From Atractiella rhizophila (Eukaryota): DNA of 64,000 nucleotides. Below the pieces are notes generated by a model, which saw only the letters and a list, made by a program, of their open reading frames with translations, ran no database searches and was not told where the DNA came from. Below, in pieces: positions 1 to 58,535 of the stretch (its first letter is position 1; every line of letters begins with the position of its first letter). The stretch covers positions 1 through 64,000 of the forward strand of contig MU271335.1 in NCBI GenBank assembly GCA_021432655.1, given 5' to 3'. A program made the translations under genes and the position numbers.

Positions 1-1304
1 GGGAACAGACGCGGGTGCCGGTGGGGGGATAGCGAAGTCTGGGTCTTCACAAGAGTCGTCATCGTTGTCGTCGATATAGGATGGTTGAATGGGGGGAGGC
101 AGGGAGAGTCCACCATCCGCTTCTTCTTCAAACTCTGAATCCGTAAAATCATCGTTGTTGACACCGTCGCCATCAACGCGGACGTCGAGACGATCTGGTT
201 CGTCGTACTCTGCATATTCTTCGTAGCCTTCCTCTTCGTCTTCCTCATCGTCATGGTAAGCCACGTTCCCACCAGCCCTTATCCTATCCATGAGCGCATT
301 CCCCATCCTCAATTTCTCTGGTACCGTCTGCGTCACCCTCTCACTCTCACCATCACTCTCCAAATCCAAGTCCAAATTCTCCTTCTCCTCATCATCCATC
401 CACTCCTGCTCCTCGAAGAATCCCTTCTGTGCAAGGGGAGAACCAGAGACCTTCTCGTCCGTGCCAGCGCTTTCTTCCGAGACCTTTCTCGCCCTCCTCC
501 TCCGCTTCATGATGTCAGCAACGGTCGCCCTTCCATCCCTCCTCTCCCATCGTTCCCTCTCCCTCCTCCTCCTCTCCTCCTCCCATCCCTCCTCATCTCT
601 TTCCCTCGCATCCATCAACCGTATCCTCTTCGCACTCCTCCCCACACTCACCCTCCCCACCACACCGCTCCTCTCTCCTCCTCCATCCCTCCCCCCTTCG
701 CCTTCCCCAATTCCGTCAACAGACACAGACGAGTTCGGCTCGTCCTCTTCCGGGACAGGAGACAGAGAGCGTGCCATGATGGGTGGCGGGGAGAGGAACG
801 ATTCTGCCCAAGAACGATCTTCTCGTTCTTGCTCGCGGAGCGAAGAGAGGTGGGAGAACTTGGATCGAGGAGAGAGAGAGATGAGGTGGTCCAGGTCCTC
901 GCAGAGAGCGGAGAGGTGCTCTCGAGTAGGAGTGTCGTAGTGGAACAGGCTCGCTCTTGGCGCTTCACCTTCCTCCAATTCCTCGCCTAACTCTGAATCG
1001 TGAAAGTGTTCCTCTTCCTCTTGCGAATGCGGAGGAGCGTGAGGATCTGAATTTGAGGGGGAGGAAGAGGGAGAGGGAGAAGGTGGGGGAATGTAAGAGC
1101 GTAAGTTTTGGGAGCGGCGTAAGAGTGGAGTGTCCTCCTTGGAGGTGGATTCGACGGAGGGAACGTTCTGGGAGGAGTTGGCGGAGGAATGGGCGGTGCG
1201 AGAATCGGAGGGGTGGTTGCCACCGAAAGTGAAGGAGGGGAGGAGGTCCTCAGATGCGTTTTCTCCGGTCGACGCGCCAAAGACGAAGGGATCCGCTGAG
1301 CTTC
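1..1304 (-). CDS. NUD1/Cdc11-like SPB/SIN scaffold, exon 2 (runs off the window start)
   Basis: Minus-strand frame open from a CAG acceptor at 1305-1307 towards position 1: GSSADPFVFG...RASLFHYDTPTREHLSALCEDL...SAKRIRL...GNALMDRIR. These resemble N-terminal motifs of fungal Nud1/Cdc11 proteins; the LRR region would lie outside the window. Absent from the ORF track (no stop in window). Splice phase matches the exon at 4293-4792. Confidence 0.6.
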
Positions 1305-1334
1305 CTGAACAGGGGAGAAAGAAGTCAACACACG

Positions 1335-1342
1335 NNNNNNNN
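1335..1342. other. Assembly gap (8 N)
   Basis: N-run, directly left of mirror block 1. Confidence 1.
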
Positions 1343-1676
1343 ACTATAGCTTCTAATGGAGAAAGGGTAACTCTGGTTATAAGTCCAACATCCACGCATA
1401 CGTTTTCCGAATGAGCCACCCTACCACTTGCTCTTCGCTTTGAGCAAAGATAAGTTGTAGCGCCACGTGGTACATAGGAGGAAGTAAACCTTCCCTCTTG
1501 ACCTGCCATACTCCCGTCCCAATGACCTCAGAGAACTTCCTAGGTATGAGAGGTTTCACGAGAGAATGTCGCAAAGGCTAAGTCAAATAAAGTGCTTGCT
1601 AGGACGCGAGTATGTCTGCGCTGAAAGGAGAGATAGTCTTTGATGCGCCTGTTGGTATGAAAGCTTCTACCGTATC
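1343..1676. CDS. RBA50: RBA50/RPAP1 C-terminal segment, read as complement left to right
   Basis: Complement translates DIEDYLFPIETNIQVVGAYAKGLLGGMVNEKRNSFLFNIAVHHVSSFIWKG...ILSKMA*, the continuation of ...RDIRLSVQDAVLE at 4882. Confidence 0.85.
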
Positions 1677-1704
1677 TGAAGGTACATTGTTGTTCCACTG
1701 GTTT

Positions 1705-4074
1705 AGTGAAGGAGGGGAAGGAGAAGAGTGGAAGGAGGAAGTCGACAAGGGTTGGGAGGTAGGTTGGTTGGAGTTTGGAAAGTCAGCTCTTAGGAAGACG
1801 GAAGGGGGAGCGAGCGAGCGCGTATGAAGAGGCCAGGTGAAGAAGGTAGAGGAGTTTATACTTGTTTTCGAAAAGTCGCATGAGCGGCTGTCTTCTCCGC
1901 ACCTTGGGCCAGCGAACCGGCGCCTTCCCCTGCTGCTCCAGCTCCTCACCTGGCGGTCTTCTCACGTGCTCACCATAATCCGGTCGCCGGACACCATCAA
2001 CTACCAAACATAGTTACAAACCCCGCTTATCTCTCCCTTTACGCTTGGTACTTAAGATGCTACAATTATGGTTTTACAAGTAGTTGGTAACATGAGTTTG
2101 GGTGACTGCTAGAGGGTTTGTCGAGGTAGTCGAGAAGTTGAGACTCTAACTGCACTTTGAGGTGTAACAGGAATGCTCTGGTCAACACTCAAGCTGAACT
2201 TTCATTTTTCTTATTTCGCTTGGAGCTCGAGGTCAAGTGCTTGCTCGTTGGCATCGAGAAGGTGAGCAAAGAACAGGAGGAGTGGGGAGTGCCTTGGTCG
2301 GTACTTCTCAAAGTGCAGGAAGGGGGCGAGACGTGAAGCTAGGTTCTTGAGAGAGTCTCGGTTGTGAACGCAGGATACTAGAAAGAGACCGGATGTTTGA
2401 CGTGATAGTCCGAGCGGTGGGATCTTCGATCATCTGCTACCCCCTTGTCTTCTGCATGGATTTGACTCGTTGCCTCTCGTGCTAAGAGACGGACCCGACG
2501 CGATATAGGTTGGAAGGGTTAGATTATCATAGTGTTCCGCCTTTCTGCTGAGATCGGGAGAAAGGGGTGGGGAAAGGGAGGGAAAGGAGAGGGAAGGAGG
2601 AGCCGGATTGGGAGTAGGAGGAGCTTCCTGACCCGCTGTCAAAGGGGAAGAGAGACATGTGCAGCGAAAGGGAGACGTCTCCTCCCCCTCCCCCTACTGG
2701 GAGCCTTTAACTCTTTCAGCAAAAAAATCCACCTCCTCTCCGCCCCCATTGCCGCTGCTCCCCTGACCTTCCACACCCGCCCACTTCCCCCGCTCACACA
2801 GCCTCCTCCTACAGCTCCACTGGCCGCCAGGTCCTCCTCAAGCGGGTCTACATTAGCCGCTTGCTCTCCTGCACTCTCATCTCCTCCCTCTTCTCCACCA
2901 TTATATAGCTGAAACCCCACGCCCTACTGTGGGCAGCTTAGTACCAACAAGACATCGTACTCTTCAACCACTCTTACTCTACACCTCCCCTCCTTGCCTT
3001 GCGTGCTCTACCACCCTATCACTTGCATGCGCGGCTATCCGTGCCTCCCTCGGTCCTTAGACTGCTACCCTTTTCACTTACGTATCGGGTAGCACAGACA
3101 GGAGCGTGCAGTTGTCCTTCTTTTCCCCTCCATCCTCGTTGCTTGGCTACATGTGCAGCCCATACTCGTTGCTTTCTCGTAGTTCCCGGTAGGTGTACGA
3201 GGGATACGAAACAGGTTCGTAGCATTTGGAGCCGGTTGAGAATAGAAGCTGGGTAAAGGAGCAGCAATTAGAGCGTTTTACATAAGAAGAGAGCACTAGT
3301 CTTTCACCTTATAGCTTGGAGCAGAGGAGGAGAATCGGAAACGAAAGTGTTGCTTACTCCCTATTCCTCTGCATGCTCCTGCAACCTATCTTAAAGTCGA
3401 AACCTTCGCCACAGCGGTCACATCTGCTGTGTCACCTCTCTGCCCCTTCTTCTCTCATTCTGAGGTTCCCGTCGGGTCTCGTGCGCAAGAGGAGGAGGCG
3501 GTCGCAAGGACAACAAGGTATGACAATCTGGTAGAAATAAATAAGCTTGTCCACAGAGCCGTCCTAGAAGTCCCACTCCCCCACTGATAGTCAGCTATAC
3601 CTTAGTTTAGTTCGCTAACTCCTCCTCCTCCTCGAGAAGTTGGAGAGGAGGTGAGTCACAAGTAAGCTGTTACGTTGCAAAACCATAACACACTCTTATC
3701 TATTACTTACGAGTACGTACACACGTGTTCACTCCAATCGTTCTTTAACTCCTACTCGACGTAGTGCTCGTACCCTATTGTCTGCACCTCTTGTTACTAG
3801 GTGAAACGACGTCTCACAGTTATGCTGAATATATTTCCCCTGTAACAACGACTTAAACTACGCAACTGCTCACTGTCTTCAGAGAGAATATCGGACCTTT
3901 CCGACTCTTATCGTTTTCTTTCTGCATGCGTATTCCTACGTTCTCAGGTTGGTGCAGGTGGGGAAGGTTAGGGTTGAGGAAGGAGGCGGCGGGTGAAGCG
4001 TGCGAGTAGGTGCGGGAGTCGCGAAAGTTACGGGGGTCTGTTTGGTCGCTTCGGTGCTCTTCGTCGTCGTGGTA
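1705..4074. CDS. ALG11: ALG11 alpha-1,2-mannosyltransferase (GT4), multi-exon, read right to left without complementing
   Basis: Reverse reading: MVLLLLVASLVCLGALK (signal anchor)...GLLHPYA|NAGGGGERVLWAA...VVYTGD...WANSSWTAGH...VVFPPCDT...LSVAQFR|PEKDH...GLSTMVDEHFGINIVEFM|AAGLIPLVHSSGGPLLDLVVP...TGF...RKGRK*. Canonical GT-AG introns in this reading. Confidence 0.95.
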
Positions 4075-4292
4075 CGTAGGTAGGTGACTGTGACTGTGAC
4101 TTTAGAGTTTTAAGTTGACGGTGCACTGTGTGCTGTGCTAGACAGGCGCTAGTTTTGTTGCTGCAGAAGTGGTTTTAACTCACTTCATCGTTCCCTTAGT
4201 CGCTCGCTAATCACCCTGTTCGTCCTTATATTCAACGTCACCGTCACTTTATAGTTCTTCAGTCCACTCTAAATCGTCCCTTGTAGTGTCGT

Positions 4293-4792
4293 TACCCGTT
4301 CGCGCGGACCAGGAGGCTGGAGAGATGCAGCACCGGGAGCGGTCGCGGCAGACGTAGGGAGGCGTGGAGGGTAGGGAGGAGGCGAAGTCGGCGGTGGCGG
4401 GGTAAGCGATTGCTGGAGTGGGTGAGGCGGCAGGGGCACGCGTGGTAGGTGGTAGGTGTAGGTGCGGCGAGGTTGAGGTTGCGGTCGAGGGTGAGGTTGA
4501 GGTTGAGGTTGCGCTCAACCGCGCTCGCTTCGTCTTCGTTACTAAGTGTCCTATGGTCGCCACCACCTCTCCGCCCGTCGTAGCAGCAGTCCCTCCTACA
4601 CTGCCTCCACGTCCCTCGGGACTTCACCAACTTCGGACCGTACCGGGCACCTGTTCCCTCTCCTTACCGTCGCCCCTACCCGCTCCTGGAGAAGTCGGGG
4701 CGTGTTTGAGCTCTCCAACAAACTTGGAGGCAGCGGCTTTGAAGTACGCTGACGTAGGGGCCTACGTAGACATAGCCCTGTCTTCCTCTCTC
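4293..4792. CDS. NUD1/Cdc11-like gene, exon 1, read as complement left to right
   Basis: Complement: MGKRAWSSDLSTSWPSP...GMGEDLFS/PHKLERLFEPPSPK (needs removal of one base in the G4 run at 4697-4700), then a GTGCGT donor whose phase matches the acceptor at 1305. Confidence 0.6.
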
Positions 4793-4879
4793 CACGCAGG
4801 AAGAAAGAAGGAAGTACTGAAGAAGCGAAGATAGCGTACAGAAAAGTAAAGTAAACGTAAAAGCAAATTAACCCAGTAG

Positions 4880-7800
4880 TCCTCCAACACTGCGTCCTGT
4901 ACAGAAAGGCGAATATCACGGGCGACGTGGAGGTAATCTTTCCAAAGCAGAGAACGATAGTCTGACGGATACCGCATAGAGAGTGGCAGGATAAGCATTT
5001 TCGCAAATGCCTGGTCGCCAAACGACACTGCTTCGAATATCCCCAGTAGGTCGGAATAAAATTGATAAAAGGGTGTTGTACGCAGGAAGGCCTTTGAGGC
5101 AGTCTCCAAACCTTGGGAACGGGCGAGCGGTTTGGATTGAGACAGTGCGGTAAGGAGGGAGGATATGGAGTGCGAGACGGACGAGTCCCGGAACAGCTGC
5201 TGACTCGAATCTACACTAGTGAAAGGTCTGTTCTTCTCCAGCATGTACACTTTCATGATGTTGAAAAGTAGCAACGATCGATCTACCTTGACTCCGTTCG
5301 AGATGTGAGCAAGAAGGGACATTCGAGAGAGAACAAGGGACACGCGGGTAACCTCTACTTCTTCTGCAATTTGAGTGTCTGGCTCCTGGGAGCGACTCCT
5401 GAGTAAGTAGTCCACCCCTACAAACATCCAATCTGGTCGTAGCAGCTGGTCGTAAGGCTGAAGCTGGCGATCCATCGTCGAAAGACGAGAATACTTGTGG
5501 GCCTGTTGTGATGCCGGTTCGACAGACAACACTTCCGCCATCAGCGGTCTGATGAGTGGCAGATGTACCAATGAGGGCACTTCAAGCTGCAAATCAAGCA
5601 CGAATGGGTCTGGCGACACTGTGGAACCAGCCAAGACGACCATGAGGGAGTCGAGGATACGGACTGCAATTGTCTCGTGACCCGTGCGCAACAGGGGGAG
5701 GAGAATGAAAGCCAGAGGGAGCTTTTGAATCATTGGAAGTGCTTGGACAGCATCAACGCAGAGGTTGAGTATTGGTAAATGAAGTGCACCAAAGTTTTCA
5801 GTGGCCAAGTGGCGGAGTAACGATGAATACACGTTGGCATCGATCTTGTCCCCTAACATCTGAGGAAGTTGTGCATATAGCTGAAGGTAACCAGTGAGAA
5901 GCTTCGCTGCCAACAAACATTCTTGGGATGTCTTCGAATTGAAAATTTCCTCTGAGCTCATCCCTCGGATCTCATTGATATCCCCCTGCACTGTTTCCAG
6001 CATTTTCGACGCCTGTTCAAAAGCGACGATGCCCTTGTCTGCATTGGTAGCCTTCAAGCCTTCGAGTGCGTAAGCTGCCAGCGTCAACAACGGGGCAACT
6101 ATCCTACAGTCGCGTTGAGGGGCAACATTCTTCAAGGTTTGAAAACTGGATAGGGCCATCTCCTCTACTTGGGTCCAAACGATGTCGTGATGAGGGGTAA
6201 CATAATGAGGATTCATGGCCGCGATCGTCCACGCCACTTTCAAAGAGATCCATCTCTCAAACAGAGCTTTATCGCGCTCCTCATCTATGTTCTTCCCGTC
6301 GACGAATCGCCTCTCAAAGACTTCGAATACTGGAGTTGCTACTCTCAGCACATCGCAACCCAGCCCATACTCCGCCAACCTCTCATAGATGCCGAGGACG
6401 AGACCACCGAGATCGTGAGCTTCATCTTCCACTCCGGCTGCGTGCCACGGAGGAACAGCAAGGAAGCGGAGTAGTGTATCAGCAGTAGTAGAAGAAAGGA
6501 GTCTCTCTGAGCTTGCGCGTGATGAAGAGACAAGAACATGGAGGTATATGAGGGGTACGCGAGACGGGGCCAAATTGCGAGGTGACGGCCAGTTTCTGAC
6601 CGAGAGAAGGGTGGAGACTTGGTCGAGGAAGTGGATGGGTGGAGTGGGGATGGGGAAGCCACGAAGAATCAGACCAGACAGGACGGAGAGAACGAGGAGG
6701 GTGATCGTTCCTGGTATTGACCCTCATGAAGCTCCTTGATTGCGCCAGAATGAGCGAAGAAGGCTGCCGGCGACGCTTCAACGACCTTGTTCTCCACTTG
6801 AGGCTCCAACTCCTTCTCCCAATTCTCAACTCCCCAGGTGTACAATTCCTCCATGCTGGCCACTTCTATGTCAGGCAACCCCATCAAACTCTCCAAAGCC
6901 TCAACCGTCGCGCCAATCAGTCGTTGGTTTCTCTCCTTCAACAGGAATCCAACAGAAGCACGCTTCACCACCTCCATCTCAAACTTGTGCTTCTTCATCC
7001 CTTCTACAATTCCAGGCTGCAACTCCCCATACCCTCCAGCTCTGATCCTCCTCAGAATACGTCCTGCGAGTTGAAACGCGGCACTCCTCTGAGCCACAAC
7101 TTCGGATCCCAAGACTGAAAGCAGAGAAGTGATCGAGAAACTGGGATTTGAGGAATTTGAAGCGTGATGTGAATGTGGATGAGCATGAGCCTCTTGCGCC
7201 GAAACAGAACTGAGACTCGCATTTCCTTGCAGGTCAAAGACGATATCAACCGTCTTCTCCCCCTCCAAACGCGGAGGGCTGGACACTGACGAGCTACCAA
7301 TAATCCAATCCAACGCTCCCGAAGGGGAGGGATCCGGTTCGTTGGGGAAATAGGTGCGTCGAATATGTTCCGGCGTCCCTTCATCCTCCTCTTTCCTATT
7401 CTTATCACCCAGCTGTAAGTTGTCTTTAACCGGAGGTTTTGAGACCGTGATCGTTGTTGCCTCACTTCGAGCTGCTGGCGGCACGCTTTCTGAGCCCACA
7501 GTCGAGGAGGACGAGCTGAGAATGTTTGATTTTGAGATACCTCGATTTCGAAGCATATTTATCAGCTCCTTGGAGAGTCCAAGCTCTGCAATCTGCTGTC
7601 GCTCGATCTCGATCTGCTCCTCCGTCATACTCGCTAATAATCGTTCGTTTTCGTCGCTAACCGATCGCAAGAGATCTTCCGTATCATTCTTTGGCTGGTT
7701 GGAGTTTGGTTCATCCAGCCCACGACTTCTCGGTGGTGGTGGTGGTTCGGAAGGAATGGTGATCTTCTGTGATGCCGGAAATCCACTGGACGTGGAGGAC

Positions 7801-8138
7801 GCTATCCTTTCGCGTTCAGCCCTCGCGCGCGCGAAGCGTGACTGTTTTTTCTCTGCAATCGGGATGGGAGGTGAATCCTGGAGAGTGGGAGGAAGCGGGA
7901 TGGCATTTGACCGTGCCTGCTCCACAATCCCTCCCAACAAAATGGCGGAGGACGGAGGCTTGGGTGATGTTTTGAGCGATTCTGGTGCTTGATGCGGCGT
8001 AGGTGACGTCTGTGCCCATGCTGGCGGAGTTTTAGAGGGACGAACAACTTTGGCTGACGGTCTGCCACTGGAGGCGAAGGAGGCGTCGATCTCATCTATG
8101 GAGGCGCCGGGTCTTGGGCGTATTGGTAGTCCATCCAT
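4880..8138 (-). CDS. RBA50: RNA polymerase II-associated protein Rba50/RPAP1 (main body)
   Basis: RPAP1_N-like DENERLLASMTEEQIEIERQQI; RPAP1_C-like FDLQG...HHA...FSITSLLSVLGSEVVAQRSAAFQLAGRIL; later RPDWM and FYQFYSDLLGIFEAVSFGDQAFAKMLILPLSMRYPSDYRSLLW. Frame change near 6721; tail lies in mirror block 1. Confidence 0.88.
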
Positions 8139-8448
8139 ACTGCACAACTTTCTAAGCGTTTACGCCTTGGAATGCAGTGGAAATAGGTCACTCGCCTTGT
8201 TTTATTCATCAGTCGCTGTGCGGACTGTTGGTTCGGAAGCGCGGCGACGTTTGTTGAAGATTTACACAAATTTACAATGTTAATAACATTGGATTAATAA
8301 CTTAACTGGACTATATGGACGGGTGTCGATGTCATAGAGTATAATGGGCCTTTTCTAGTTCGATAACAAAAGGAGATTATATTCCCTCTACCTCACCATC
8401 CGCTCGATACTTTACTCTTCTCTTCAAAATGGTATCAAAAAAATATCT

Positions 8449-10739
8449 TTACAACTCATGTTGCTCAAAGAGCAACTTCTTGCTCTGCTCATAAACAAGC
8501 CAAGAAAGTGCGACCCTATGCACCACCATCCCTCGTAAATTGCCGTTCTCCAAACAAGGAAGAGAGGGGACGTACGAAGGGACCACTTTGCCCAGAGTAG
8601 GGGTGAGGCCACGATAAAAGCCTCTGACTCCTTCGTTCTCCCACGTCTTCATCGCCACATCCTTGAATCCTCCATAGATCTGCGGATGAGCTGGAGTGCC
8701 TTGCGCCTGCATCCGGGTGCGAACAAGGTTTCTTGAAAATTTTGAACAGAAATCCGTCAGCACGACTCTCACATTTATGAGATAAGGAGACGCACAACGG
8801 GTATACGGATGTGGCGCCTATCCCTCCACTAAAGCTTCCAATCGCCAATACTCTGTCCAGTGCAAATGCTTCAGTCACATACACAACCGTCAAAGGCGAG
8901 AAGACGAACCCAAACACGCCCGGTTCCTTCCCATTTGTCCATTTGGTATATATTACCTTCAATCCTTCAAAAACACTCATGTCTATAGCACTATAGGGAA
9001 AGACGCCGACGAGGCCAGGTATGAGACCTTTGAAGTAAGCTCTCATCCCGCCATTCCTCCACATCTCCCTCCCCGTCTCTATTATCAGCTTGTTACCTGC
9101 GAAATCTCCGCCAGTAGAGGACATGACGCGAGTCTTGAGGGTCTCGATGGGATAAATCACTGCATCGTCACCATCAACACGAGAAAGCCAGAAGTAGAGT
9201 AGTAGGAGACGTACTAAGTTGACTGATGATCCCACCAATACCACCACTGACAAACCGACTCGCGCCACTGATATCCCTCACATCATCCACGCGGTCCCAA
9301 TACCTCGCAAAAAGGCGCTTAGAGGATTCATAGCTCAGAAACTTGACCGCCGACTCAGGGAAGATCTTGATGACATTCAATCCGTTCCCGACAAAGAAAG
9401 CCCGCATACCCCCTTGCCGGTACAAGGCGGTGATGGCATCTCGGAGGACATAGATGCCTTGGGTCGAAGCCGAGGCGACGGCCACTGTCGCACTGAGCGG
9501 ATTGGAAGTCTTCAGGTGGATAGCGGGTGAATGGACGGTCGAGGTGATGAGGTAGATTTTTAAGCGGTCGAATGGGGCGGTTGCAGTTCGAGACACTACA
9601 TCACGACACCGAGGAACAAATCAATTCCTTCCTTCCCTTTCATGCAGCATGAAAAAGAGAAAGGAAACGCACCTGCACCGGCTATCCCACCTGCGAGCAA
9701 GAACTTGCCCGCGCCTTTGAACATGTCATCCGGCTCCTCTTCCTCCTCATCCTCCTCTACATCATCGTCTCCATTCTCCTCCGCGGAGTGATTGTGATTG
9801 TGATTATTATTGTGACTGACGGCTAGGGACTCTTTCTTCTTGCCCTCCTTCTCTCCCAATACAAAATCCCCATCTGGGGTCAAAATGGTGACTGGATCCC
9901 GCCTGTGGGCTTGGTAGTAAGAGTAGATTTCGGGGATGGATGGGTGACGGGGAAGGAGCTGTTTAAATCTGTTAGTCCGAGAAGAGGGGAGGACGCAAGA
10001 CGAACAAGAAGGAAGTCACGCCATTCCGCATAAGATATCGTGCCATCTCTATCCATGTCTATTGCTTCCAGAAACTCGAGGACATGCTTGTCATTGATCT
10101 CCATCCCTAAGCAGCCACCACTTCTTCAGTGATACGATGAGAAAATGAAGTAGACGAACCGGCGCGATGGAAGGCCTTTTGAAGCTCTTCCCTGTCTAAA
10201 GCTCCATCTCTGTTCTTGTCTACTTCCTGAAAGATATGCCATAGCTCTGACAATCCGTCATCACCATCCATCACTCTGCCAATCAGAGAAGAGAGGGAAA
10301 ACAACCTACCAACTTCCTTCTTTGCGCAGAACCTCTCAAAGTCGTCCCAACTCAGCTCCCTCTCCTTTTCCTTTCCCTTTCCCTTCTTCTGCACTGTGTT
10401 CCACCAAGTCGCTTTCCCTTTCGCAGCCACGTTCTCATCTTCGAACTCCTTCTTCTCGCACTCGGTCCACAGCTCCCTCTTGTACTTCTCCCGCTCTTTC
10501 CGCTTCTCCAGCTCCGCATTCGACGCCTCTCGCAAATTCATGCTCGCTTCTACGGGCGAGGGAGAGAGCGACTCGTACAGCTTCCGGAGACGGACTAGCC
10601 GGGCGGAAGGGGACTCAGAGTCGTAAGGATTGGGAGCTTGGGAGGTTGAGGGGTCAGATGCTTGGGAGGCTGAAGAGGCTGACGTTGAAGGAGCGAGGGT
10701 CGCGTCGAAGATGTCCCTGTTCGACGGGGGTGGTGACAT
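8449..10739 (-). CDS. SAL1: Ca2+-binding mitochondrial ATP-Mg/Pi carrier (Sal1/SLC25A24 type), multi-exon
   Basis: EF-hands DKNRDGALDREEL and DMDRDGTISYAEW, then three carrier repeats (TATAPFDRLK, IYPIETLKTR, VYPL|NLVRTRMQAQG) and GNGLNVIKIFPESAVKF. Confidence 0.92.
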
Positions 10740-21580: not shown

Positions 21581-22577
21581 TCACTCCCTTCCTGGGCTAC
21601 CAGAAGTATCACTATTCGAACCCTGATAATCGAAAACCATCAATTCAGGAGAGATTAGGTCATAAGTCTTGATGAGCAGATTGAATCGTTCATATAATGA
21701 CGTTTCTGCCTGTTATAGTTGTCCGTCAATGCCGTCGTGGAAAGGAAGGAGGAACAACAGTACCTCACAAGTCTCAAATACCTCCCGATGGTGAAACCAT
21801 GCATGGGCGAATATGCGGTAGAGCCTTCGAGCAATGGATGTGAAGTGCTTCAAGGATGTGGGGTTGATCGTTAAACTAGACAGGAACAAGTCACTTATGG
21901 GAAGGATAAAGGAATGGAACAGACGCACCGACTTGGGAAGTATCGCGCTGAGTTTAGCAGTGCCGTTGCTCCGTCTAAGGTGTGGGTGATATAATCGATA
22001 GCACAGCATTCCGTCTAGAGTTTCACCATAAGAAAAAAAGTAGTACATGGAAGGAAAGTTCACCTCGGTTGCTGCAGCATGAGCGGCGCAAAGATAGAGC
22101 CATTCTCCAGCCTTCATTTCAGGACAACGGTCTCGCTGACATTCCGACTGCAAAGCAGTCACGAAAGGGTGAGACAGGTCGAGTGCAAGTCGTCTAATCG
22201 GCGTTTAGTCTGAATATGGAGACAGGGAAGAAGTTCAGACCTAAGTTGCTCGTAAAGCCAAACATCCCTGTCGACGAGAGGGATACCCTCCTGAGCCGCT
22301 TCCGATTCTTCTGGGCTCCTCTCCACGCCATTGACGTCTTGTCCTGCCAGAGCAGCCTTGTCAGGTATGGCTATTATCCGCTCCACGTCATGAGGGTTTG
22401 TGCGGACTAAATAGGCGATGTACTCCTGCAGTTGAAAGGGAGACTCGATTTGGGAAAGGTTCAACGCTGCCGCGTCAGAAGTGGATGGATAGCAATCCTA
22501 CAGCATTCCCGTCAGAATTATCTCTTGCTGGAATTCTGTGCGCATACCTGGTACTTAGTGCCCACTCTGAGATGCAT
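21581..22577 (-). CDS. Mob4/phocein (STRIPAK Mob3) family protein
   Basis: FQLQEYI...[11 protein letters not shown]...[16 protein letters not shown]...[26 protein letters not shown]...[25 protein letters not shown]. Confidence 0.92.
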
Positions 22578-26561: not shown

Positions 26562-27112
26562 GGGCCAGTTTGGTGGAAATGAAATCGGAAATAAGGGGAA
26601 ACAAGAAGGGCGGATGATTGCATACTGTAGTTACGACAAATATGCAATAATTAGATAGGCACAAGAAATGTTCTTCATATGACGCTTTGTGGATGCACTG
26701 AGACCATCTTAGCTACTTAGGACCCCCCAATTGGAATTGATGACGACAGCTCAGCTTTCGCAGATCACTACCGTAAGAATAATGGGTTTGAAGAACCGTG
26801 GGATTAAGCTAACTCAAGAAAATTGTACATATACCTTGCATACATAGTTCTAACGTTCTGACACTGATAATCATCAATTCATGACCAGGTTTGATAAAGT
26901 ATACTCGTAATCATTGGTATTTGCGCCTATATAATACACATCAAATGGGTGAAGGAAACATCACTTCATCGCTCATGGCATGTCGTCATAAAGGTAGGCA
27001 TCAGGACAATGATTCGTTCATAAGTACTGATGATATCATCACATAAAAAAACAACCAGAAATGAAGAAGAAGAAAGAAAATACGAAGAAACAGCGCACGC
27101 ATAGTCCAGGCT

Positions 27113-30100
27113 CTAGGCTCTACTCCTCAAAGTCCTCCGCGTAACAGGCTTCTCCATTTCGACCAACTCTGTTTTCTTCGCTCTAGTTGGCCCGCTCTTG
27201 CCTTTCGCCGTCGAAGAAGCGACAGGAGCTGGCAATGCTTCGAGGAGACCGGCCGATGCTGGACCTTCGTTTTCCTTGTCCTCAGTCTCCTTTGTTGTAC
27301 CTTTTGAAACGCTCTCCGATGTTTCAGCTCCGGCAGCCACAGCTTGTTCTTTCGCTATAGCAGCAGTGCCTTTGGCCGAAGACCCTTGAGCGCGTTTTGT
27401 AGGAGCAGAAGCCATCGCCTTCCTTACTCTGATCGACTTCGCTGGGATTATTTCTTCTGGGGCTGGTGCTGTTTCAACAGCAGGCTGAGTCGTTTTGCGT
27501 AGCCGTGTGCTGGTGCGCTTGGCAGGAACAACTGATGCTGAAACTTCTGGCTCAGTTGCGGAAGTTGCTCGTTCGTGCACTTGGGAAGTTAGTTTCGTGG
27601 AGCCTTCAGAGGGCGGCGACTGCGAACGAGGTTGAGCCGAACGGAGTTGTACATCCCCTTCGACCACAAAAGTAGCCACTTTCCTAGATTGGCGTCCCAT
27701 GTCCTTAGAGAGTGTCGTTACCTTTGCCAATCCCTGTAGAGGTGGAGATGATCGTTGGGAAGTTGACTGGACAGGTTCCACGTGTTCCGCTAGCTGACTC
27801 TGGTTGTCTTCCTCTGAGGCCTGACGGCGGGTGCTTCGACGGGTAGGAATGGCCCTAGACCCTGGTTTACTTCTGCCAGTTGGTGGCTTTGCCGCAGGCT
27901 GCTGTTCTGGAGCCACATTCTCCTCCGAACTTTTTCCGGAGAGGGGAACTATGTTCGAAGGAGGAGGAAATCCCTTAGGGCCAGGAGGGTCATCGTTACC
28001 AGATGCTGTGAACATGACAGCGCTGTCATTGGGCTCCAACGACTGCCGTCTGGAGGCAAGGATGCTCTCCCTGATCTGCTGAAACTTTGACTTCGGGGTT
28101 TCTGCCTTCGCAGCTTCACCAACTTGGTCGTCCTCTGCCAGGGTTGTGTCGCGCTGATGAAATGGTTGAGCAATAGAGACATGAGAAATTGGAGCTAAGA
28201 TCTTACAATGACAGCCTCGTTCGTTGGAACACCACCATGCGCACCACTAATCCTAGCCTTCGCAGCAAGCACTGATTTAGCCGGTGAGTCTGTAGGCACT
28301 CTTCTAGGTCCTCGTGCCACAGAGTTCTGTTTGGAAGGGGACAGTGTGAAATCGGGCAAATTTGCCTTTGGCTCCCTTGGGAAAGGGGACGAAGGTCTGC
28401 TCGGAATTGCAGGATAATTGGCTCGAGGCGTCATCGAAGGTCTCGAGAAGACAGCTCGTCGTTGTTGAGTAGGTGAAGTCTACGAACGAGTTAATCCTGC
28501 GGCCAAAGCTGAGCTGAATACGCACCGACTCAATTTCTGCATCTTCCTCCGCCTCTGCTGCCATTTTCTCCTGCTCCCTAGCCGCACTCCTAAGATCCGC
28601 ATAACTATCGCTTCTCCTCCCCACCTTCTTTTCAGTGCTATTTCTCCCTTTCTGTCTCTCCGTCTCCAACCTCTCCGCATCAATCGCTTTTGCACGTTGC
28701 TCCTGCTCCTCCCCGTTGCATACAGCCTCCCCGTCAGCCATTTCCACATCCGGAATCTCTGTTGCCATCTCGGTTGGACTGACACTCAGGCTCTCCTTCT
28801 CTCGTTCAATCGTAGCTGAAATGCCGTTCCGAATCAACACTTTCTCGCGTAGGGAGAGTCGTCGAGAGAAAGATTGAGAGTGGGGGATAGAAGCGACGGA
28901 GGTGATGACAGGCGTCTTCGGTGGTGTCACCCGTTCAACGCGCCGCTCCTCAACCGGCGTAGGAGGAGTCAATTGAGAAGGAGGAAGAAAAACGGGGGAT
29001 TCATGCTCTTCAGGCATTCCTGGTGGTGTCGTCGATCGTGGAGGTGTGGCGTAATCTCCTTGGTCAGAGCTGTCGTCGTTGAGAGACACCTCCATGTCCT
29101 CATGCTTCTCCTCGAATTCCTCTTCACTCCCAACGTCCTGGTCGACCTGTGACCTCGGTCCCATCCTTTGTCCAACAGAAGAAGACTCGCTTCCGCTGTC
29201 GCTGCTACTGGTGTCATCTTCCTCCTCCCCAGCGCTTTGGCCTCCTGTCAGCATATCACTGATTCTCCGACTATTTCTACTCCCCTCCTTGGCAACTTTT
29301 ACCCCTTCCATATCCTTGAGGTCTTCAATGCTAAGTGTCCTCCTGACTACCTCCTTTCCTTTGACCTCCTCCTTCGTCAGAGATCCAGTCGTCATGCTCT
29401 TCTTCATGCCCTCCAACCATTCTTCCTTACTCTTGGAATCTACGAAAGTTAAGCTTCGCTTCATCCCCCCAGATGCGAGACCATCTCCAACTGAAGCCCT
29501 CCTCCTCTCCCTGCGAGCACGCAACATCTCCTTCTCTTTCTCAAATTGTGCCTGAGAAACAGCTTCCACGGGCTCATATGGATCTATGGGGCGAGAGGCC
29601 GTGAGGGGAGGATACAATGAGCGAGGTCGCTTCTCCAATGTTGGAGTCGAAGGTACTTCGAGTTTATCTCGAGGTGATTTAACGATAGATTCTGTCTCTT
29701 TCGGAGACAGAATAGGTGACACTTCGTCTAAGCAAATGAGGTCCTCTTCTGGTGCACCTTCGTCGATCGTACTCGTAACCGACACATCCCCTTGTTCTTC
29801 CTCCTCACGTATCTCAGCAGAAGGAAAAGACTGGGCCCTCTTGACACTTTCCAGACGATACCCCAGAGGCTTCTTGTGCTGCGGCGTGGGAGGGATTGGG
29901 GCCGCGTTCCTTCGTGGCTCTTTGACATGTTGTGCTTTCGGTGGAGCGTCGTCATCGAAGACTCCGGGCGGAGGAGGAGATGCGAAAGCCACGTATACAA
30001 AGCGTCGGTTGTAGATGTTGATGATAGTCCCGTTCTTGATCTCCACTGGCTCGTTCCTCGTGATCGGTGCATGAGGAGAAAGAAACGGAGGATTGGTAGA

Positions 30101-38829: not shown

Positions 38830-39847
38830 ATGAGTTTTTTTGGCTTGTGAGCTTCTTGCTGATTCACTGGGGTCCTGTCTCACCGTCGCGCAAGGTCTAA
38901 ACAGAAAGTTTGCGTGCACCTGTTGCACGAGGCTGGTGTACTTATGTAGTGCTCTAGACCTTCAAACAGCGCAACATCCCTCAAGGAACGAAGCAGTATC
39001 AGCTCAAGAAGTATGCGGAAGCTACTCTCGGATCAGGGAATTTGAGGCTAGCAGTTCAGCTGCCAGAAGGGGAAGATCTGAATGAATGGTTGGCAGTTAA
39101 TAGTGCGTTTCGTCCCCGTGCTTTGCGATTGGGAGTGACGAATTATTTGTTCCTCTTACTTCATGGATCAAGCTGTCGACTTCTTCAACCAGCTCAATAT
39201 GCTCTATGGTACGGTGACAGAGTTCTGCACTGATCAGGAATGTCCGATTATGAGCGCCGGTCCAAGGAGAGCTCTTCCACGCTTTCAATTCGGGAGTACT
39301 GAATTCATGTGCAGATTTGAATATCATTGGCAAGACGGCGTGAAATATAAGAGGCCAACCAAGATGTCAGCTCCGGGTTTGGCTCCCTCTCGCTTTATTT
39401 CTGCAAGCCCTGACCACACGTTTAAAGGCTATGTCGATGCACTCATGAACTGGGTACAAGACCTACTTGACAACGAGGACGTGTTCCCTAGCAAAATCGG
39501 TACGCTCGCAATGTCTTTCACTCACATGCGGCGACAGCCCTAAGTTGGGAGACAGGCGTACCGTTTCCCAAGGATTTCCAAGTCACCATTAAGTCGATCG
39601 TACGCCGACTTTTTCGAATCTACGCCCACCTTTATCATCACCATTTTGCGCAACTGTGTGCACTGAGCATAGAGGCGCATATCAATACGTCCTATCGTCA
39701 TTTCTTGCTCTTCGTAAACGAGGTTCGTCACAATCTCTTCGGCTCCTGCTAGAATTGATGAATTCTGGTTTAACCTAGTTTGACTTGATTGATCCGAAAG
39801 AACTGTCTCCTCTTAACGAGTTGAACGAAGGCATCCTCGCCCAATGA
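38830..39847 (+). CDS. MOB1: Mob1 kinase activator
   Basis: [68 protein letters not shown]...[15 protein letters not shown]. Confidence 0.96.
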
Positions 39848-53236: not shown

Positions 53237-53796
53237 ATGGTAGTCAAACGAAAACACGTCTCGTCGACGTCGCTACCTGCCACTGGAACAATCGAGGATA
53301 CCTTTTTGGACACCCAAGACCAAGAGGAGCTTGTGAGGCAATTAAGAAAAGATAATACGCGGCTGCAACGCCTCCAGGAACTCTTTTGCGCCATTATTCA
53401 AGGCCTTTTGATTATTTGTTGCCTGCTGTGTGTAATTTCACATGTCCAGATCGGAACACCCTTAATGTATTCGTTACTAGCTTCAGCGAGGAGTATTCTC
53501 GATTCGTCGTCATCCTTCAAGTCATTAGCCTTGGTCTAGCTTTGCGTGAAAATCGAGAAGCCAGGATCAGTCAACTTACTTCTACGAATGATTTGGATTT
53601 TCTCGCCCAAGGAATATTAACGCTGCCAGGCGTCTATGTTGCGGCGAGCTCGTACCAAGAGTCTTTATCACAAATATTCTGGGCAAGCCCTGCCGTTACA
53701 GTTGCAATACGCTATTATCTTCGTTGTAATTGGTTGCAGACGAACCTCGCAATTGACGGTCTTGAGAAAATGCAGTATCGATTTAAGAAAGTCTAA
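53237..53796 (+). CDS. Small hypothetical membrane protein (2 exons)
   Basis: FLDTQDQEELVRQLRKDN followed by hydrophobic segments, ending IDGLEKMQYRFKKV*. Confidence 0.6.
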
Positions 53797-53860
53797 ATGG
53801 CCACGGTCTTGTGTATGATCAATTACAACAACAGTTCTAATGTATAACATTTCTCCACTG

Positions 53861-54496
53861 CTACACGCGACAATTCGACTGTACCAATTCTGAGCTTCGT
53901 ACCTTGCTAATAAGATGAAAACATGGCGCACAATGTTAAGAATGAGTACATCCGACGCTCCGATCGCCTGTAGATCGTCCATCGTCTTCGCCATCGTCTC
54001 TCGCTCCACCATAGAACTAACTGCGACCCATTCGGAGTCATCGAGAGGAGAGATAGTTGCAGCTCTACGACCAGGAGTAATTTTTGTCGCTTCTGAAATC
54101 TTCGATCTCAAAATGTTATAGTTGCACAGGACGTATTTCTTGGCAGCAATCACTCCCGCTATGCGAGATGATATTAAGTCCATCAACTGCCAATTTTTCG
54201 AGTTTGGCTTCGCTGATCGAATAAGGACTGCCTGGCTGGAAAGAATGGTTTCGATTGGCTTGAGCCCAGCAGCTCTCATCGTTTCTCCGGATTCTTTTAA
54301 GGTGCACAAGTTAGCTTGTCATTTTAAGCGAGCTATGACTTGCCAACAAGGTCAACAATGCCATCAGCTAGTCCCAACGCGCAAGCTGCCTCTACGCTTC
54401 CGCCTACATACTCTATCCTGGTCGTTTTCTTCGGTTCTGTCTTCTTATCAAGCTCTCCAAAATATTGCGCAGCCAAAACCTCAAAGCTAGTCACAA
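53861..54496 (-). CDS. HIS1: ATP phosphoribosyltransferase, C-terminal half
   Basis: VTSFEVLAAQYF...YVGGSVEAACALGLADGIVDLV|ESGETMRAAGL...RIAGVIAAKKYVLCNYN...ITPGRRAATISPL...GASDVLILNI|SNCRV*. Confidence 0.96.
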
Positions 54497-54555
54497 NNNN
54501 NNNNNNNNNNNNNNNNNNNNNNNNNNNNNNNNNNNNNNNNNNNNNNNNNNNNNNN
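54497..54555. other. Assembly gap (N-run) inside HIS1
   Basis: N-run directly left of mirror block 2. Confidence 1.
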
Positions 54556-55312
54556 GCGGTGTTGAAACCTCCTGCGGGTCGACGGACTAGAGGTTCTTCG
54601 TGACGTCTGTAGAGGTCAAGGGTAAGTTTGACGCTTCGAACGAGGTTGGCTTCTAGTTTAAGCTGTTTACCAGTTGGAGGATGGAAGGCCCAGCTAGCCT
54701 CTGCGAAACCTTTAGAAGTCTTGTCAACGGTCCTGGTTTTTATGACAGAAAGTTTATGGATGCAAACTTCTGGAACTCTTAGAGCGAGCCCATTGCCTTC
54801 CTACACAACTAGAGAGCAAAAGCCTTGATAAACAGGAACGAGTTCGTGGGCAGGGAATGTGGTTTGGATAAGAGGAGCTAGTAAAACAAAGAACCGACGC
54901 CCAGTAGTTTGTCCTTCCTAGTGATTTAGACTTCGCTACCGACCTCTTGAGGCGCCGTCCTCTCTCATACGTTCTTTAAGTTCTGATGTAGTTGCGGACA
55001 CTTCGGCTAGGATGGGTAGCGGAGGCGTTATGTCTCAAAGACGCTTTGTTACTAGGCGACCATGAAACGCTTATAAAGGTAGCGGACTACTACTATATGG
55101 CCACCGAGTCGAAGTCCGAGCTTCAGGTCAAGGGTCTGCCTCTTGAACGGCTTGCCGACCGAGTCTAGCCTGTTAGAGTCGAACTAACCAAAGACTTCTC
55201 TTCTTAGTCGCTAGTCGGTCCGAGAGCGCACTTCCTACTACTTTCACTATCGTTGCTAAGACAATGCGACCTAGCAGCAGCAGTCCAGGCCTTTCACGTA
55301 TCCTCGCATATT
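54556..55312. CDS. SUV3: SUV3 C-terminal segment, read as complement left to right
   Basis: Stop-free for about 250 codons: ATTLEDAQLPDLQEALQTSPVPIQTAKLAPT...LFVLAQAPV...MIYRWLSFRLEVQFPD...HRSV*; continues ...QIAGRAGRYGMGKAKGMV. Confidence 0.92.
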
Positions 55313-55326
55313 ATGTAACGTAATTG

Positions 55327-56326
55327 AATAACACGAACTTAGTAAGCGTTAAGTAACTAGGTGTATATAAATGAACTATAGACTATATTTCAGGACTTGG
55401 TCTGCGCGACTCAACGCACGACCCTTTTGGGAGAAGAACGCCTTTCCATAACGCTGGTGCTCAAGCTTATTTACGCTGTCAGGAGAAGGAAACAGGTGAG
55501 CATTCAAACTGTTCAAAGTTAACGTACCTCCACTTACGAATGACCATTGCAGACCCCTCTCTCGTCCCCTTCCACCTCTATGAACCTTTCCTCGCTCCTT
55601 CTACTATCGCATATTCGTCCGCTGCCGTTTTGTGGTGGAAACTGAGGGGCCGACGCACACATGCTGCAGCTCCTCTCATCTTAGTGTCTTTTCTTCCCGA
55701 GTGTACTGTCGCCTCCGTTAACGAGATACCAAGCGTACAGGACTATAGGGCATTTCCAGTTTTCACTAATAGACGACCGCACCAGTCTTCTCGTATTTTT
55801 CTAGTTATTGTTTGACACAGTTAACGGGTAAAGCACCACTTTCCGCACTACCGAAGTTCGTGGCACAGGACCAGGGTGGTCCACACTCCCAATAGTCCGT
55901 TTAGTGATGTATTCTGCAGTTGCAGGTTTTCAGGTGACTCTTGATCGCCACCTGACTGACTAACAGGTCTTACTGTGTTACTCTAAGGACCTACGGCTTT
56001 AACCGCGTCCTCACGAAGTAAAGGAGTCTCGCCTCTACCGGGTTAGGCAGAAACAACGGACGTTGGTACCATTTAAACCCTGGTTCACATCCATCGAGTC
56101 TGGTAAACTCTCCGTCTCTTACACAACGACCTGTCTCGGCAACTCTAACTCCTAACACCCACTCTTCTTGTCGCGGAGTAGCAGTCGATCTGCACTTAGT
56201 CATACTAAGGTCACGACCACTATATAAGCGTGCTACCCGATGATGCATCTCATGTGCCGAGGGTCCAAGTTTACGATTTCGTTCAACTTCGTTCTCCTCT
56301 CATTCTTAATCGAACTACGACCAGTA
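55327..56326. CDS. GPI12: GlcNAc-PI de-N-acetylase (Gpi12/PIG-L), multi-exon, read right to left without complementing
   Basis: MTSIKLILTLLLLQLALA...VVAH|PDDEALFFSPTI...LCLSN|GNKDGLGHLRSEEM...IITFDLYGISGHANHRAI...QHATQRVWFRTLYQISSKYMWINEL..*. Confidence 0.95.
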
Positions 56327-56513
56327 AAATAAGCCCTGCAACTCACTAAAAGATGAGTTTGTTTACAAAAGCCTTAGTAGTATTGAAAAACGAAACGTAG
56401 TAAGGAAGGGCTATCGACGAAGATGATGGAAATGGTCTAGGTGCTTGAGAGTAAGAGCAATCAAAATATCTAAAATGTCCACCGCTGTTTAGTCTGCGTT
56501 GCTCCGCACTCGA

Positions 56514-56948
56514 TACTGCAAATGGTTCAGGTGAAACCTTCTGTCCGATGACAAGCGTTAGGGATTCTTTCCACTTACTAAAATAGAAACCATGCCCCGT
56601 TCCCAACTCAAAAGTTTTCCCTCCGACATGCTTTTCACGGAACTCGAAGAGCGTCCATTCAGGAGCGGCAAGGACGACGAGGACTACGAGTATCTTAGTG
56701 TCCTCGCCTATAGGTTAAGTCAGCGCGTTTAGCGGAACTACAAACGGATCACGCATTAGTACGGTAGCGGGACAAGCAGAGAAAGTACGAAACGACACCC
56801 GACCAAAAATGTGCACTACGATCGCAAAAGGAAGGACGACGTCTGTAGGGAGCAAAGCATCCACTTCCCTTACAGCTAGATCCATATTGTCCAGTTCTGT
56901 ACCAACGTCTTCGTCGTCACCCGAGTAACTAACTCCTTTAAGAAGGAA
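56514..56948. CDS. HIS1: HIS1 N-terminal exons, read as complement left to right
   Basis: MTFTKSTLEDRLLFAIPKK|GRLYEKCLELLA|GADIQFSRANRLDVCLVRNHAIAL|VFLPAADIPRFVGEGNVDLGITGQDMVAE...IEEILP, with three GT-AG introns. Confidence 0.96.
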
Positions 56949-58535
56949 ACCATCCCCTTCGCTTTGCCCATACCGTATCTCCCGGCTCTGCCAGCAATCT
57001 GTCCAATGAGGGAGCTCGGTAGCTTATGCATTGTCCTACCGCCCGCCGTCTCGCCATATTTGTAGAGAGATTCAAAGATTATTCGCTTGATTTTTCTATC
57101 CCAAAATGGTCAAGGCGACAAATGCAATGGCGGCACAGAAACCTACAAATTGAGGCCCATTCCAATCGCATCGCTCCCAACCAGCACATCTACTTCTCCC
57201 TGGTTGAACATCTGCGCCTGGGAGGAGCGAACTTCCGGAGGCAAGGAACCATAAATCACAGCAACCTTCAAAGCCGTTTCTCGTTGAATACGTTGCTGCA
57301 GAGCGAAAATTCTTGCTCTAGAAAAGGCCACAAGGCAGTCACCGGTGCTTAGGTCGACGAGTTTGTTACCAAGACCCTTTTGGGCGACAGCCAGCGGTGT
57401 CAGTCGTTCGTAACTATGCACAGTCAATTTGTCCCCTGTTACCTCACATAGCTTCCGTATAAGCTCTACTGCCCGTAATTCACCACAGAGATGGATTTCC
57501 TTCGCAGCCAAAGACATGAACGCTGCTGTCCAAGCAACCCCTCGATTGACATCGTCAATCATTTGGATTTCGTCAATCACGGCAACATCATACGTTGAAC
57601 TAGCTGTCGACTGAAGCATTTCGACCGTACAGGCAGTCAAAGGAGCGTTATCTGCGACAATCTTGACCACCTCTCCTGTTACTAAGTTGCAGGTCCTACT
57701 GATAGGCTTTCCGTCCTTGTCAACAATCCCTCCCTCATTGAATCTGGTGAAGATTTCGTGGGCCAGGAGACGAAGTGGGCCGGCGTAGACTCCTGTTTGA
57801 GCATTCGCGAGAGCGAGCAGAGCATTATAGGTTTTGCCTGAATTTGTCGGTCCCACGTGTAGGTGTACGTGACGTTGTGTTTTTCTCGATCCACGGTAAA
57901 GATCAGCTGGCGAGGTGAGGTCCGCTATCTCCCTCAAACGCTGGATACGCTCCCTGAGGCTGGCAGGCAGCTTTTGTTCAACAGTCCATTGAAAAAAACG
58001 AGACGCGACTGCTCGGGTGATGATCTCTCGTGGTGGATCGTCGAGCTCAAGGTCCCATCTAAGCAAATTAAAACCGGAATAACAGATTAAAGGCTTATGC
58101 GCACTCTCTCAGTATCTCTTGCTCGGTTTTGGAGGATTCATCCAGTGTCTTCAGCACTTCTGACCCAAATGACGCCGCCAAACGAGTCCCGAATCCTTGC
58201 GAACCGTCTTCTTGATTCGATATGCCCACCAAACGTAAAAGTCTATGGACATTGGGGGCGAGCTGCGCGAACTTGGCGACTTCTTGACGGAGGAAAGGCA
58301 AAGGAGAGTGGGAGACTTGAGTCTCTGCAGACTGTGTTGCAACAGTCCGCCGTGGAGAAGCATTCGTCTCTTTTCTTCTTGATCTTGATCTTCGTTGCGA
58401 CGCGGGGGGACGACCGACAAGGGTCACAGGGAATCGAGCAGCATTGGGAAGTTTAGTGCTGAGGTTGAGCGTGCTGGCGTTTCTGACGGCTGGGACGTAA
58501 AGGATTTTAGACGTGCTGGCGACGTTGGTCCTCAT
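56949..58535 (-). CDS. SUV3: Mitochondrial RNA helicase Suv3 (N-terminal and helicase core)
   Basis: HVGPTNSGKTYNAL, YAGPLRLLAHEIF, ACTVEM, VIDEIQMI, YERLTPL, GDCLVAFSR, IYGSLPPEVR, SDAIGMGLNL, QIAGRAGR; R/S/T-rich presequence. Confidence 0.96.

Follow-up and report, generated by a model that had tools for sequence, protein, structure and literature searches.

Reversed but uncomplemented sequence beside assembly gaps conceals a predicted ALG11 and, probably, parts of SUV3 and HIS1 in a scaffold of Atractiella rhizophila

Introduction

Misoriented contigs (false inversions) are local orientation errors of assembly software that typically lie beside gaps and break the genes at their ends. The two blocks of sequence described here are like them in being, on our preferred reading, assembly-made orientation errors that break the end genes. 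A false inversion, however, is a reverse complement, in which genes can still be read from the opposite strand and reads align in flipped orientation, whereas neither strand of the present blocks matches reads or genes, so that inversion callers and ordinary BLASTX are blind to them. Erroneous fills made by gap-closing programs offer a second comparison, as they too leave wrong text beside a residual N run with an incorrect number of N (8 instead of 10 in the present case); such fills consist of wrong or collapsed sequence, whereas here the bases are right and their order is wrong, and the true text is exactly recoverable. Reversed, uncomplemented letter order also occurs naturally in mirror repeats (H-DNA-forming tracts), which are short homopurine/homopyrimidine symmetries within one locus; by contrast, the blocks described here are 3.5 kb and 2.4 kb long, bear genes, are reversed whole, and have no partner copy. 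DNA strands are antiparallel, and no pathway of recombination or repair is known by which a segment would be reversed yet left uncomplemented. Searches of the literature outside subscription papers yielded no account of a reversed gap fill of this kind, nor of the assembly of this genome; a passage of PMC5938232 proved irrelevant.

The window analyzed here comprises 64,000 nucleotides (positions 1 to 64,000 of contig MU271335.1, assembly GCA_021432655.1). A sequence-only reading of this window had proposed that one block was written backwards and conceals a complete ALG11 together with pieces of two flanking genes.

Materials and Methods

Contigs from four public sequencing runs (X1 to X4) were compared with the window; X1 and X2 represent one sample, and X4 names no study. 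The names ALG11, SUV3, and HIS1 were assigned using local profiles and BLAST against sequences named by Pfam or by record annotation. The local ALG11 profile was built from 11 ORFs with both Pfam ALG11_N (PF15924) and Glycos_transf_1 (PF00534), out of 12 ORFs tested. The SUV3 C-terminal profile was built from 14 homologues, of which the two that were checked carry Pfam SUV3_C and Suv3_C_1; for HisG, the search with PF01634 returned no control loci from which a profile could be built. N runs and blocks are given without strand.

Results

Boundaries and Junctions of Block 1

Block 1 (1343..4879) consists of 3537 bases of true DNA in reverse order, uncomplemented. It starts directly to the right of a run of 8 N (gap 1, 1335..1342), and the coordinates proposed in the sequence-only reading proved exact. 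The true letters at this gap, as given by contigs of runs X1, X2, and X4, amount to 10 bases. At the left junction, contigs of three of the four runs that align up to 1334 continue through these 10 letters into the 20 letters with which the reversed block opens; at the right junction, its final 30 letters immediately precede the sequence aligned from 4880 (30/30) in contigs of the same three runs. The matches at both junctions are exact, and neither loose-end string can be found on either strand of the window as deposited. On both flanks, contigs therefore lead into the reversed sequence, as the sequence-only reading expected. The deposited and true orientations have no exact 20-mer in common.

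Junction-spanning contigs carry the sister allele, in that 13 listed read letters turn 8 of 11 amino-acid differences into residues of P0001 (the sister RPAP1 protein described below); strictly, these contigs give the true letter order at the homologous locus, and not that of this scaffold's own allele. The contigs of runs X1 to X4 may derive from the assembly's own source sample and would hence not be independent of it, although it is against source reads that an artefact is properly tested. Within 1501-4200 none of the four runs had an aligned contig; this coverage hole by itself proves nothing and was not counted as evidence. The region 4201-4800 is a hexamer-repeat tract. Some short pieces aligned to its deposited text at a likeness of at least 90%, including, among the matches listed, a 36-letter piece with three mismatches (X3).

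Reading Frames of the Deposited Text

The longest stop-free frame in block 1 as deposited is 142 aa, and none of the 27 deposited frames of at least 70 aa in blocks 1 and 2 together has a Pfam match. Neither tblastn of 117 ALG11-motif loci nor the local ALG11 profile, applied to all six frames, matched block 1 as deposited, which bears out the claim that its six-frame translation is empty. Other long frames can be found in the window by reading it in reverse (27106-28155, 60341-61006, and similar); they overlap long native frames, several of which have Pfam matches, and were taken as chance.

Genes Restored by Reversing Block 1

The native body of RPAP1 (4880..8138, minus strand) encodes Pfam RPAP1_N, RPAP1_C, and TPR_RPAP1, and has 98% identity to P0001, a 1202-aa RPAP1 that is labelled Atractiella rhizophila and encoded on a sister contig. 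The C-terminal tail of this RBA50-type protein is found at 1343..1676 when the complement of block 1 is read left to right: base 1343 supplies the last letter of a split Asp codon, followed by 110 codons (1344-1673) and a stop codon (1674-1676), and the 110 amino acids are 100% identical to P0001 residues 1093-1202. Across the restored junction, GA at 4881-4880 of the minus strand joins the complement of base 1343 to give ...VQDAVLE-D-DIEDYLFP in frame, a string that is identical in P0001; both the tail and its in-frame rejoining thus agree with what had been read from the sequence. The Pfam profile TPR_RPAP1 (221 positions) is matched over positions 10-215 in P0001 versus 9-164 in the native part of the window; without the tail the domain breaks off at profile position 164, and only the tail from the reversed block completes it, as in P0001. 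The native body also contains a one-base frame break near 6709-6711, where contigs of all four runs have an extra C behind 6709. Given the intact RPAP1 on the sister contig, RPAP1 is at least not missing from the proteome of the organism.

When the plain letters of block 1 are read right to left, a complete ALG11 of 538 aa is predicted at 1705..4074 from the local profile and a spliced model. The model has eight exons (4074-3929, 3508-3376, 3323-3146, 3096-3006, 2950-2459, 2391-2223, 2170-2048, and 1989-1705) and seven introns, all of them GT-AG, one of 420 bases and six of 49-67 bases; five of the seven donors read GTNCGT, the pattern of the native introns in the window, and the other two read GTTCGC. 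The spliced model scores 474 bits against the local profile (E 2.9e-146) and shows 33-48% identity to the reference ORFs, and profile positions 87-511 are covered by eight colinear pieces, in the reversed text only. Exon 1 begins with MVLLLLVASLV... (an N-terminal hydrophobic segment) and ends with ...VVGLLHPYA, which is spliced to NAGGGGERVLW; the resulting HPY-x-NAGGGGE motif is typical of the family, as seen in the 11 references. By its match to the profile of ORFs with ALG11_N followed by Glycos_transf_1, the restored gene is predicted to encode ALG11, a GDP-Man:Man3GlcNAc2-PP-dolichol alpha-1,2-mannosyltransferase of family GT4. PF15924 was found neither in E. coli nor in the 14 control genomes, as expected of a eukaryotic family. 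The full-length, backwards-read ALG11 with GT-AG introns that had been proposed was thus recovered.

The gene on the other side of block 1, referred to as NUD1-like in the sequence-only reading, has a native downstream exon (1..1304, minus strand) that runs off the start of the window, and a 5′ exon region at 4293..4792 (complement read left to right), in which an ATG lies at 4293 and the consensus donor GTGCGT follows at 4793. In run X4, a contig resembling a transcript passes directly from complement-read 4792 into the native exon at its start, 1304; a 27-letter loose end of X4 behind 1306 corresponds to complement-read 4764-4790, followed by AG. The X4 data uphold the proposed exon end at 4792 and its splice phase. 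The proposal of a single open exon at 4293-4792 did not hold, as the frame from the ATG stops at 4722-4724 and the frame that splices correctly lacks an ATG, so that the region as written is not one open exon. An intron within 4293-4792 could bridge the two frames by 44 possible GT-AG pairs, none of which has the local donor GTNCGT; one reads GTGCGC. The native part of the gene (444 aa) matches no Pfam family, and the rest of the gene lies beyond the window. Protein searches returned no homologue except the chimera P0002 (see below), and the protein atlas gave no usable match.

A Second Block Beside the Other Gap

A second block, which goes beyond the sequence-only reading, lies directly to the right of the other N run of the window (gap 2, 54497..54555; 59 N, within HIS1). 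Block 2 (54556..56951; approximately 2396 bases, the right end being placed from the reading frame to within 1 base) appears from its gene content to be reversed and uncomplemented like block 1, and would hide the C-terminus of SUV3 and the N-terminus of HIS1.

The native helicase core of SUV3 (56952..58108, minus strand) encodes Pfam DEXQc_Suv3 and Helicase_C. Its predicted C-terminal part (54556..55312, complement read left to right) follows on from the native ...GRYGMGKAKG at 56954 and stays open to 55309, followed by a stop codon. The SUV3 C-terminal profile matches one of 18 frames, the reversed one (E 2.4e-36, 111.8 bits), and tblastn with the SUV3 homologues gave a colinear C-terminal match for 14 of 14 in the restored text versus 0 of 14 in the deposited text.

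HIS1 (ATP phosphoribosyltransferase) has a native 3′ part at 53671..54496 (minus strand) that matches Pfam HisG at profile positions 69-111 and 109-156, as well as HisG_C. The native parts match Pfam HisG only from profile position 69 onwards, and the N-terminal positions 1-68 would be supplied by reversed block 2. Here, the first four exons (56514..56951, complement read left to right; 56514-56571, 56620-56655, 56703-56772, and 56824-56951) are predicted to encode 97 aa that align to E. coli HisG residues 6-79 (E 5e-11). The native parts align to E. coli HisG 129-171 and 167-294, colinear with the reversed N-terminus; residues corresponding to HisG ~80-128 are missing, and are presumably located in the 59-N gap. 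Weak matches of E. coli HisG to the raw DNA (E 0.004-0.005) are superseded by the alignment of the spliced N-terminus.

Discussion

Origin of the Reversed Blocks

Both N runs of the window (2/2) have a reversed block directly on their right side, and only reversal restores, in frame, the genes that the block ends interrupt (RPAP1, the neighbour splice, SUV3, and HIS1), which argues that both blocks are software artefacts of the deposited assembly and not DNA of the organism; we put the probability of this reading at about 0.97. The sequence-only reading had attributed block 1 to a gap fill that was written reversed instead of reverse-complemented, and this attribution is supported by the contact with the N run, the flanking contigs, the three restored genes, and block 2.

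The most likely cause would be a gap-closing step that extends the right-hand contig leftwards into the gap. If bases were gathered as the extension advanced, or from the opposite strand, and the string were pasted with either reversal or complementing carried out, although both are needed, the letter order of blocks 1 and 2 would result, and a short N run would remain where the extension failed to merge with the left-hand contig. Gene prediction on the corrupted text would then lose ALG11 altogether and deprive RPAP1, SUV3, and HIS1 of one end each, and one gene model would pass through nonsense exons and join RPAP1 to its neighbour. The responsible program step and the genome-wide extent of the fault we infer from two cases on the same gap side. 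Since both of the two gaps in the window are affected, the fault is probably systematic; in its full form, that every leftward-extended gap of this assembly was filled backwards, and possibly those of other assemblies by the same tool, we would offer even odds.

The same artefact could have been introduced at another step, by a separate patch contig in minus orientation that was complemented and not reversed, or by an equivalent operation. Such a step would give identical text, so that all the evidence for reversal fits it equally, and nothing in the window identifies the software. In both cases, however, the block flanks its N run on the right and is joined to the right-hand contig without N (block 1 to the exact base), whereas for a separately placed patch gaps on both sides, or placement on either side, would more often be expected. 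With two cases this argument is a weak one, and we regard the patch contig as a distinctly less likely route than leftward extension, though one with a real share of the probability.

The reversal is very unlikely to have arisen after deposition, by handling of the window or as a planted test, with the public record being correct, because public proteins already carry its consequences. P0002, a source-named public protein of 1838 aa encoded on a contig of 87,612 bases, links RPAP1 to the neighbour gene by way of nonsense exons; of the 341 residues in the link, 339 are translated exactly from minus-strand frames of block 1 as deposited. P0005, a 313-aa SUV3 fragment with 100% identity to the window, ends 5 residues short of the block 2 boundary, and looks like a truncated SUV3 model. 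The public annotation was thus built on reversed text, with P0002 as a chimeric model. The sequence-only reading expected annotation to report ALG11 as lost and RPAP1 as truncated. ALG11 is unreadable in the scaffold; RPAP1 was not annotated as truncated, having instead become part of the 1838-aa chimera.

A real rearrangement (a true inversion, or unrelated non-coding DNA inserted in one haplotype) is more improbable still. The scaffold and another contig are diverged sister copies (98% protein identity), and structural differences between the two are conceivable. A true inversion, however, is a reverse complement whose genes would stay readable in six frames, where none is readable here, and block 1 reproduces gene-bearing sequence letter for letter in reverse, fitting to the base at both ends, for which we know of no DNA mechanism. 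To mirror-order DNA being real on this scaffold's own allele we assign a very small probability.

Significance for Public Gene Sets

These findings reveal no new biology, and their value lies in data quality. The public protein set contains at least one chimera (1838 aa), and ALG11 and a complete HIS1 are both unreadable in the scaffold; in comparative genomics, errors of this type make too many genes appear "hypothetical" or "lost". If the fault is systematic, many public genes would be hidden, truncated, or fused, and would be recoverable by reversing the text beside N runs. A simple screen, in which a few kb beside each N run are reversed and then searched, could repair this genome and might expose the bug elsewhere.

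The deposited orientation of block 1

The window contains two N runs (1335-1342 and 54497-54555), and the first base of block 1 (1343-4879) is the first base past the former. As deposited, the longest stop-free frame of block 1 is 142 aa, against ~200-900 aa for most native stretches of equal length (those outside the blocks), and none of the 27 deposited-orientation frames of at least 70 aa from blocks 1 and 2 (the latter at 54556-56951, ~2396 bases) matched a Pfam family at E ≤0.01; ordinary translation of block 1 is empty, as the sequence-only reading had stated. The N-run lengths do not equal the true gap sizes: 8 N (1335-1342) represent 10 real bases, and 59 N (54497-54555) must span roughly 45-50 HisG residues or more.

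RPAP1 and its restored tail

RPAP1 lies on the minus strand to the right of 4879, where its native part carries Pfam RPAP1_N, RPAP1_C, and TPR_RPAP1; the TPR_RPAP1 match ends at profile position 164 of 221, precisely at the edge of block 1. A protein search with this native part returned four proteins, including intact P0001 (1202 aa, 98% identity, on a 164,516-base contig) and P0002 (1838 aa, marked "partial", 99% identity, on an 87,612-base contig), both with Atractiella rhizophila as the source label. The TPR domain of P0001 extends to profile position 215 of 221. The complement of block 1, read left to right from 1344, yields 110 residues and then a stop, identical to P0001 residues 1093-1202, and the restored junction (...VQDAVLE-D-DIEDYLFP) is the same string in P0001; the proposed in-frame recovery of the RPAP1 tail was therefore borne out.

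P0002 is a gene model built on the window's scaffold. Past ...VQDAVLED it runs for 341 residues before the neighbour gene begins, 339 of which translate minus-strand frames of deposited block 1 exactly; thus, the reversal is older than the annotation and did not arise in handling of the window, and the error is present in the public record. The end of this partial protein falls a few residues short of the window's first base (window 1-10); probably, the scaffold itself ends not far from the start of the window, where the neighbour gene is cut. Separately, contigs of all four public read runs (X1-X4) have one extra C at 6709-6711 (CC to CCC), which keeps the RPAP1 frame open as in P0001 (...EGQYQGTITLL...) and without which the frame breaks; P0002 omits ~33 residues at this break via an invented intron. 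The discrepancy reflects a homopolymer error or else a true difference between alleles.

Read contigs across the block 1 junctions

Window 1-9000 was compared with the four runs, of which X1 and X2 are one sample, X3 holds little, and X4 names no study; these runs may themselves be the source of the assembly. Contigs of X1, X2, and X4 aligned to 1334 extend by 10 letters, followed by the first 20 of reversed block 1, and those aligned from 4880 are preceded by its last 30 letters. Both matches are exact, and both loose-end strings are absent from either strand of the deposited window; neither was seen in X3 over window 1-9000. A few short pieces matched the deposited, repeat-rich 4201-4800; the deposited and true orientations share no 20-mer.

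X4 looks RNA-like, because its contigs omit four short minus-strand stretches with GT..AG ends. At 8515-8574, 8732-8795, and 8853-8909, the omitted stretches (GT..AG ends, minus strand) correspond to introns in a gene for a mitochondrial carrier (Pfam Mito_carr), and X4 is thus transcript-like.

Fewer than 1% of sites distinguish the run contigs from the window, and the contigs carry the allele of P0001; 13 listed read letters convert 8 of the 11 amino-acid differences to its residues. The scaffold carrying the window appears to be a haplotig, or sister copy, of the contig bearing P0001. Differences between the window and X1 contigs (1-9000) are strongly one-sided by strand (C>T 19 vs. G>A 1; A>G 10 vs. 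T>C 5), which is not the expectation from symmetric allelic variation. At 842-958 and 7740-7860, paired short contigs lie on the same place with differing depth and mismatch number (e.g., 67.8 vs. 127.6, X1), which fits two alleles in the sample.

ALG11 and the neighbour gene in block 1

As ALG11 references, 117 metagenome loci were recovered with a degenerate pattern built on a family motif of 11 residues; 11 of the 12 motif-containing long ORFs tested carry Pfam ALG11_N and Glycos_transf_1. Peptides of reversed block 1 match these loci over the whole protein length, and those of deposited block 1 match none of the 117. A local profile built from the 11 ORFs matched only plus frames of reversed block 1, in eight colinear pieces (profile positions 87-511), and was silent on deposited block 1 and the native window. 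Spliced at GT-AG sites, the restored ALG11 has 538 aa, a score of 474 bits (E 2.9e-146), and 33-48% identity with the references, confirming that a full ALG11 is read from block 1 taken backwards. Five of its seven donors are GTNCGT, the native-intron pattern, and the other two GTTCGC. Exon 1 begins with a hydrophobic segment and contributes ...VVGLLHPYA, which a 420-base intron separates from NAGGGGERVLW. A low-complexity stretch of ~70 residues (roughly 255-330) is unaligned to the profile and may conceal another intron.

The neighbour gene, the putative NUD1-like gene of the sequence-only reading (native downstream exon 1-1304, minus strand), had no family or homologue in Pfam, protein searches, or the protein atlas. 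Its proposed exon at 4293-4792 stands in part. In complement-read block 1, an ATG lies at 4293 and a consensus donor at 4793, and positions 4764-4790 of the same reading are identical to a 27-letter X4 loose end behind 1306; with the common AG, this gives a splice from 4792 to native 1304 (...SGQKER-G-SSADPFVFG), which places N run 1335-1342 in an intron of this gene. What did not hold is a single open frame: that of the ATG stops at 4722, and the correctly splicing frame has no ATG. The break reflects either a further intron or one wrong base; the local donor consensus GTNCGT is absent from all 44 candidate bridging GT-AG pairs (one is GTGCGC).

SUV3 and HIS1 at block 2

A backwards scan of the whole window revealed a 281-aa frame beginning at the second N run. 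The flanking native genes each lack one end: SUV3, with its helicase core at 57146-58108 and 56954-57109, and HIS1 left of the gap, with HisG profile positions 69-156 and HisG_C. In a library search, the SUV3 core found 150 relatives, of which 14 near full-length proteins formed the comparison set; all 14 have a colinear C-terminal match straight after the core in the restored text (letter order reversed), vs. none in the deposited text. A profile of these C-terminal parts matched 1 of the 18 frames searched, the reversed frame (E 2.4e-36). The join reads ...GRYGMGKAKG-I-ATTLEDAQLPDL, which sets the end of block 2 at 56951. At its opposite end, four HIS1 exons encode 97 residues that are colinear with the native HIS1 parts and align with residues 6-79 of E. 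coli HisG (E 5e-11), vs. E 0.008 for the best of 33 deposited-orientation control peptides. Elsewhere in the window, Pfam Mob1/phocein matches occur in two separate frames 17 kb apart (21716-22204, minus strand; 39139-39540, plus strand).

Origin and consequences of the reversed blocks

The reversed block is confirmed as observed, and the evidence supports reading it as an artefact of gap filling; the reversed blocks are not a biological feature. Both lie to the right of their N run, with no N between block and right-hand contig. The simplest account is that the contig would have been extended leftward into the gap and the extension pasted in extension order, or complemented without reversing, a mechanism that we infer from two cases. 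Identical text would result from a misplaced minus-oriented patch in place of an extended contig. The same fault probably recurs at other gaps of the assembly. In this window, the artefact concealed one gene, removed the ends of four others, and made a chimeric public protein.
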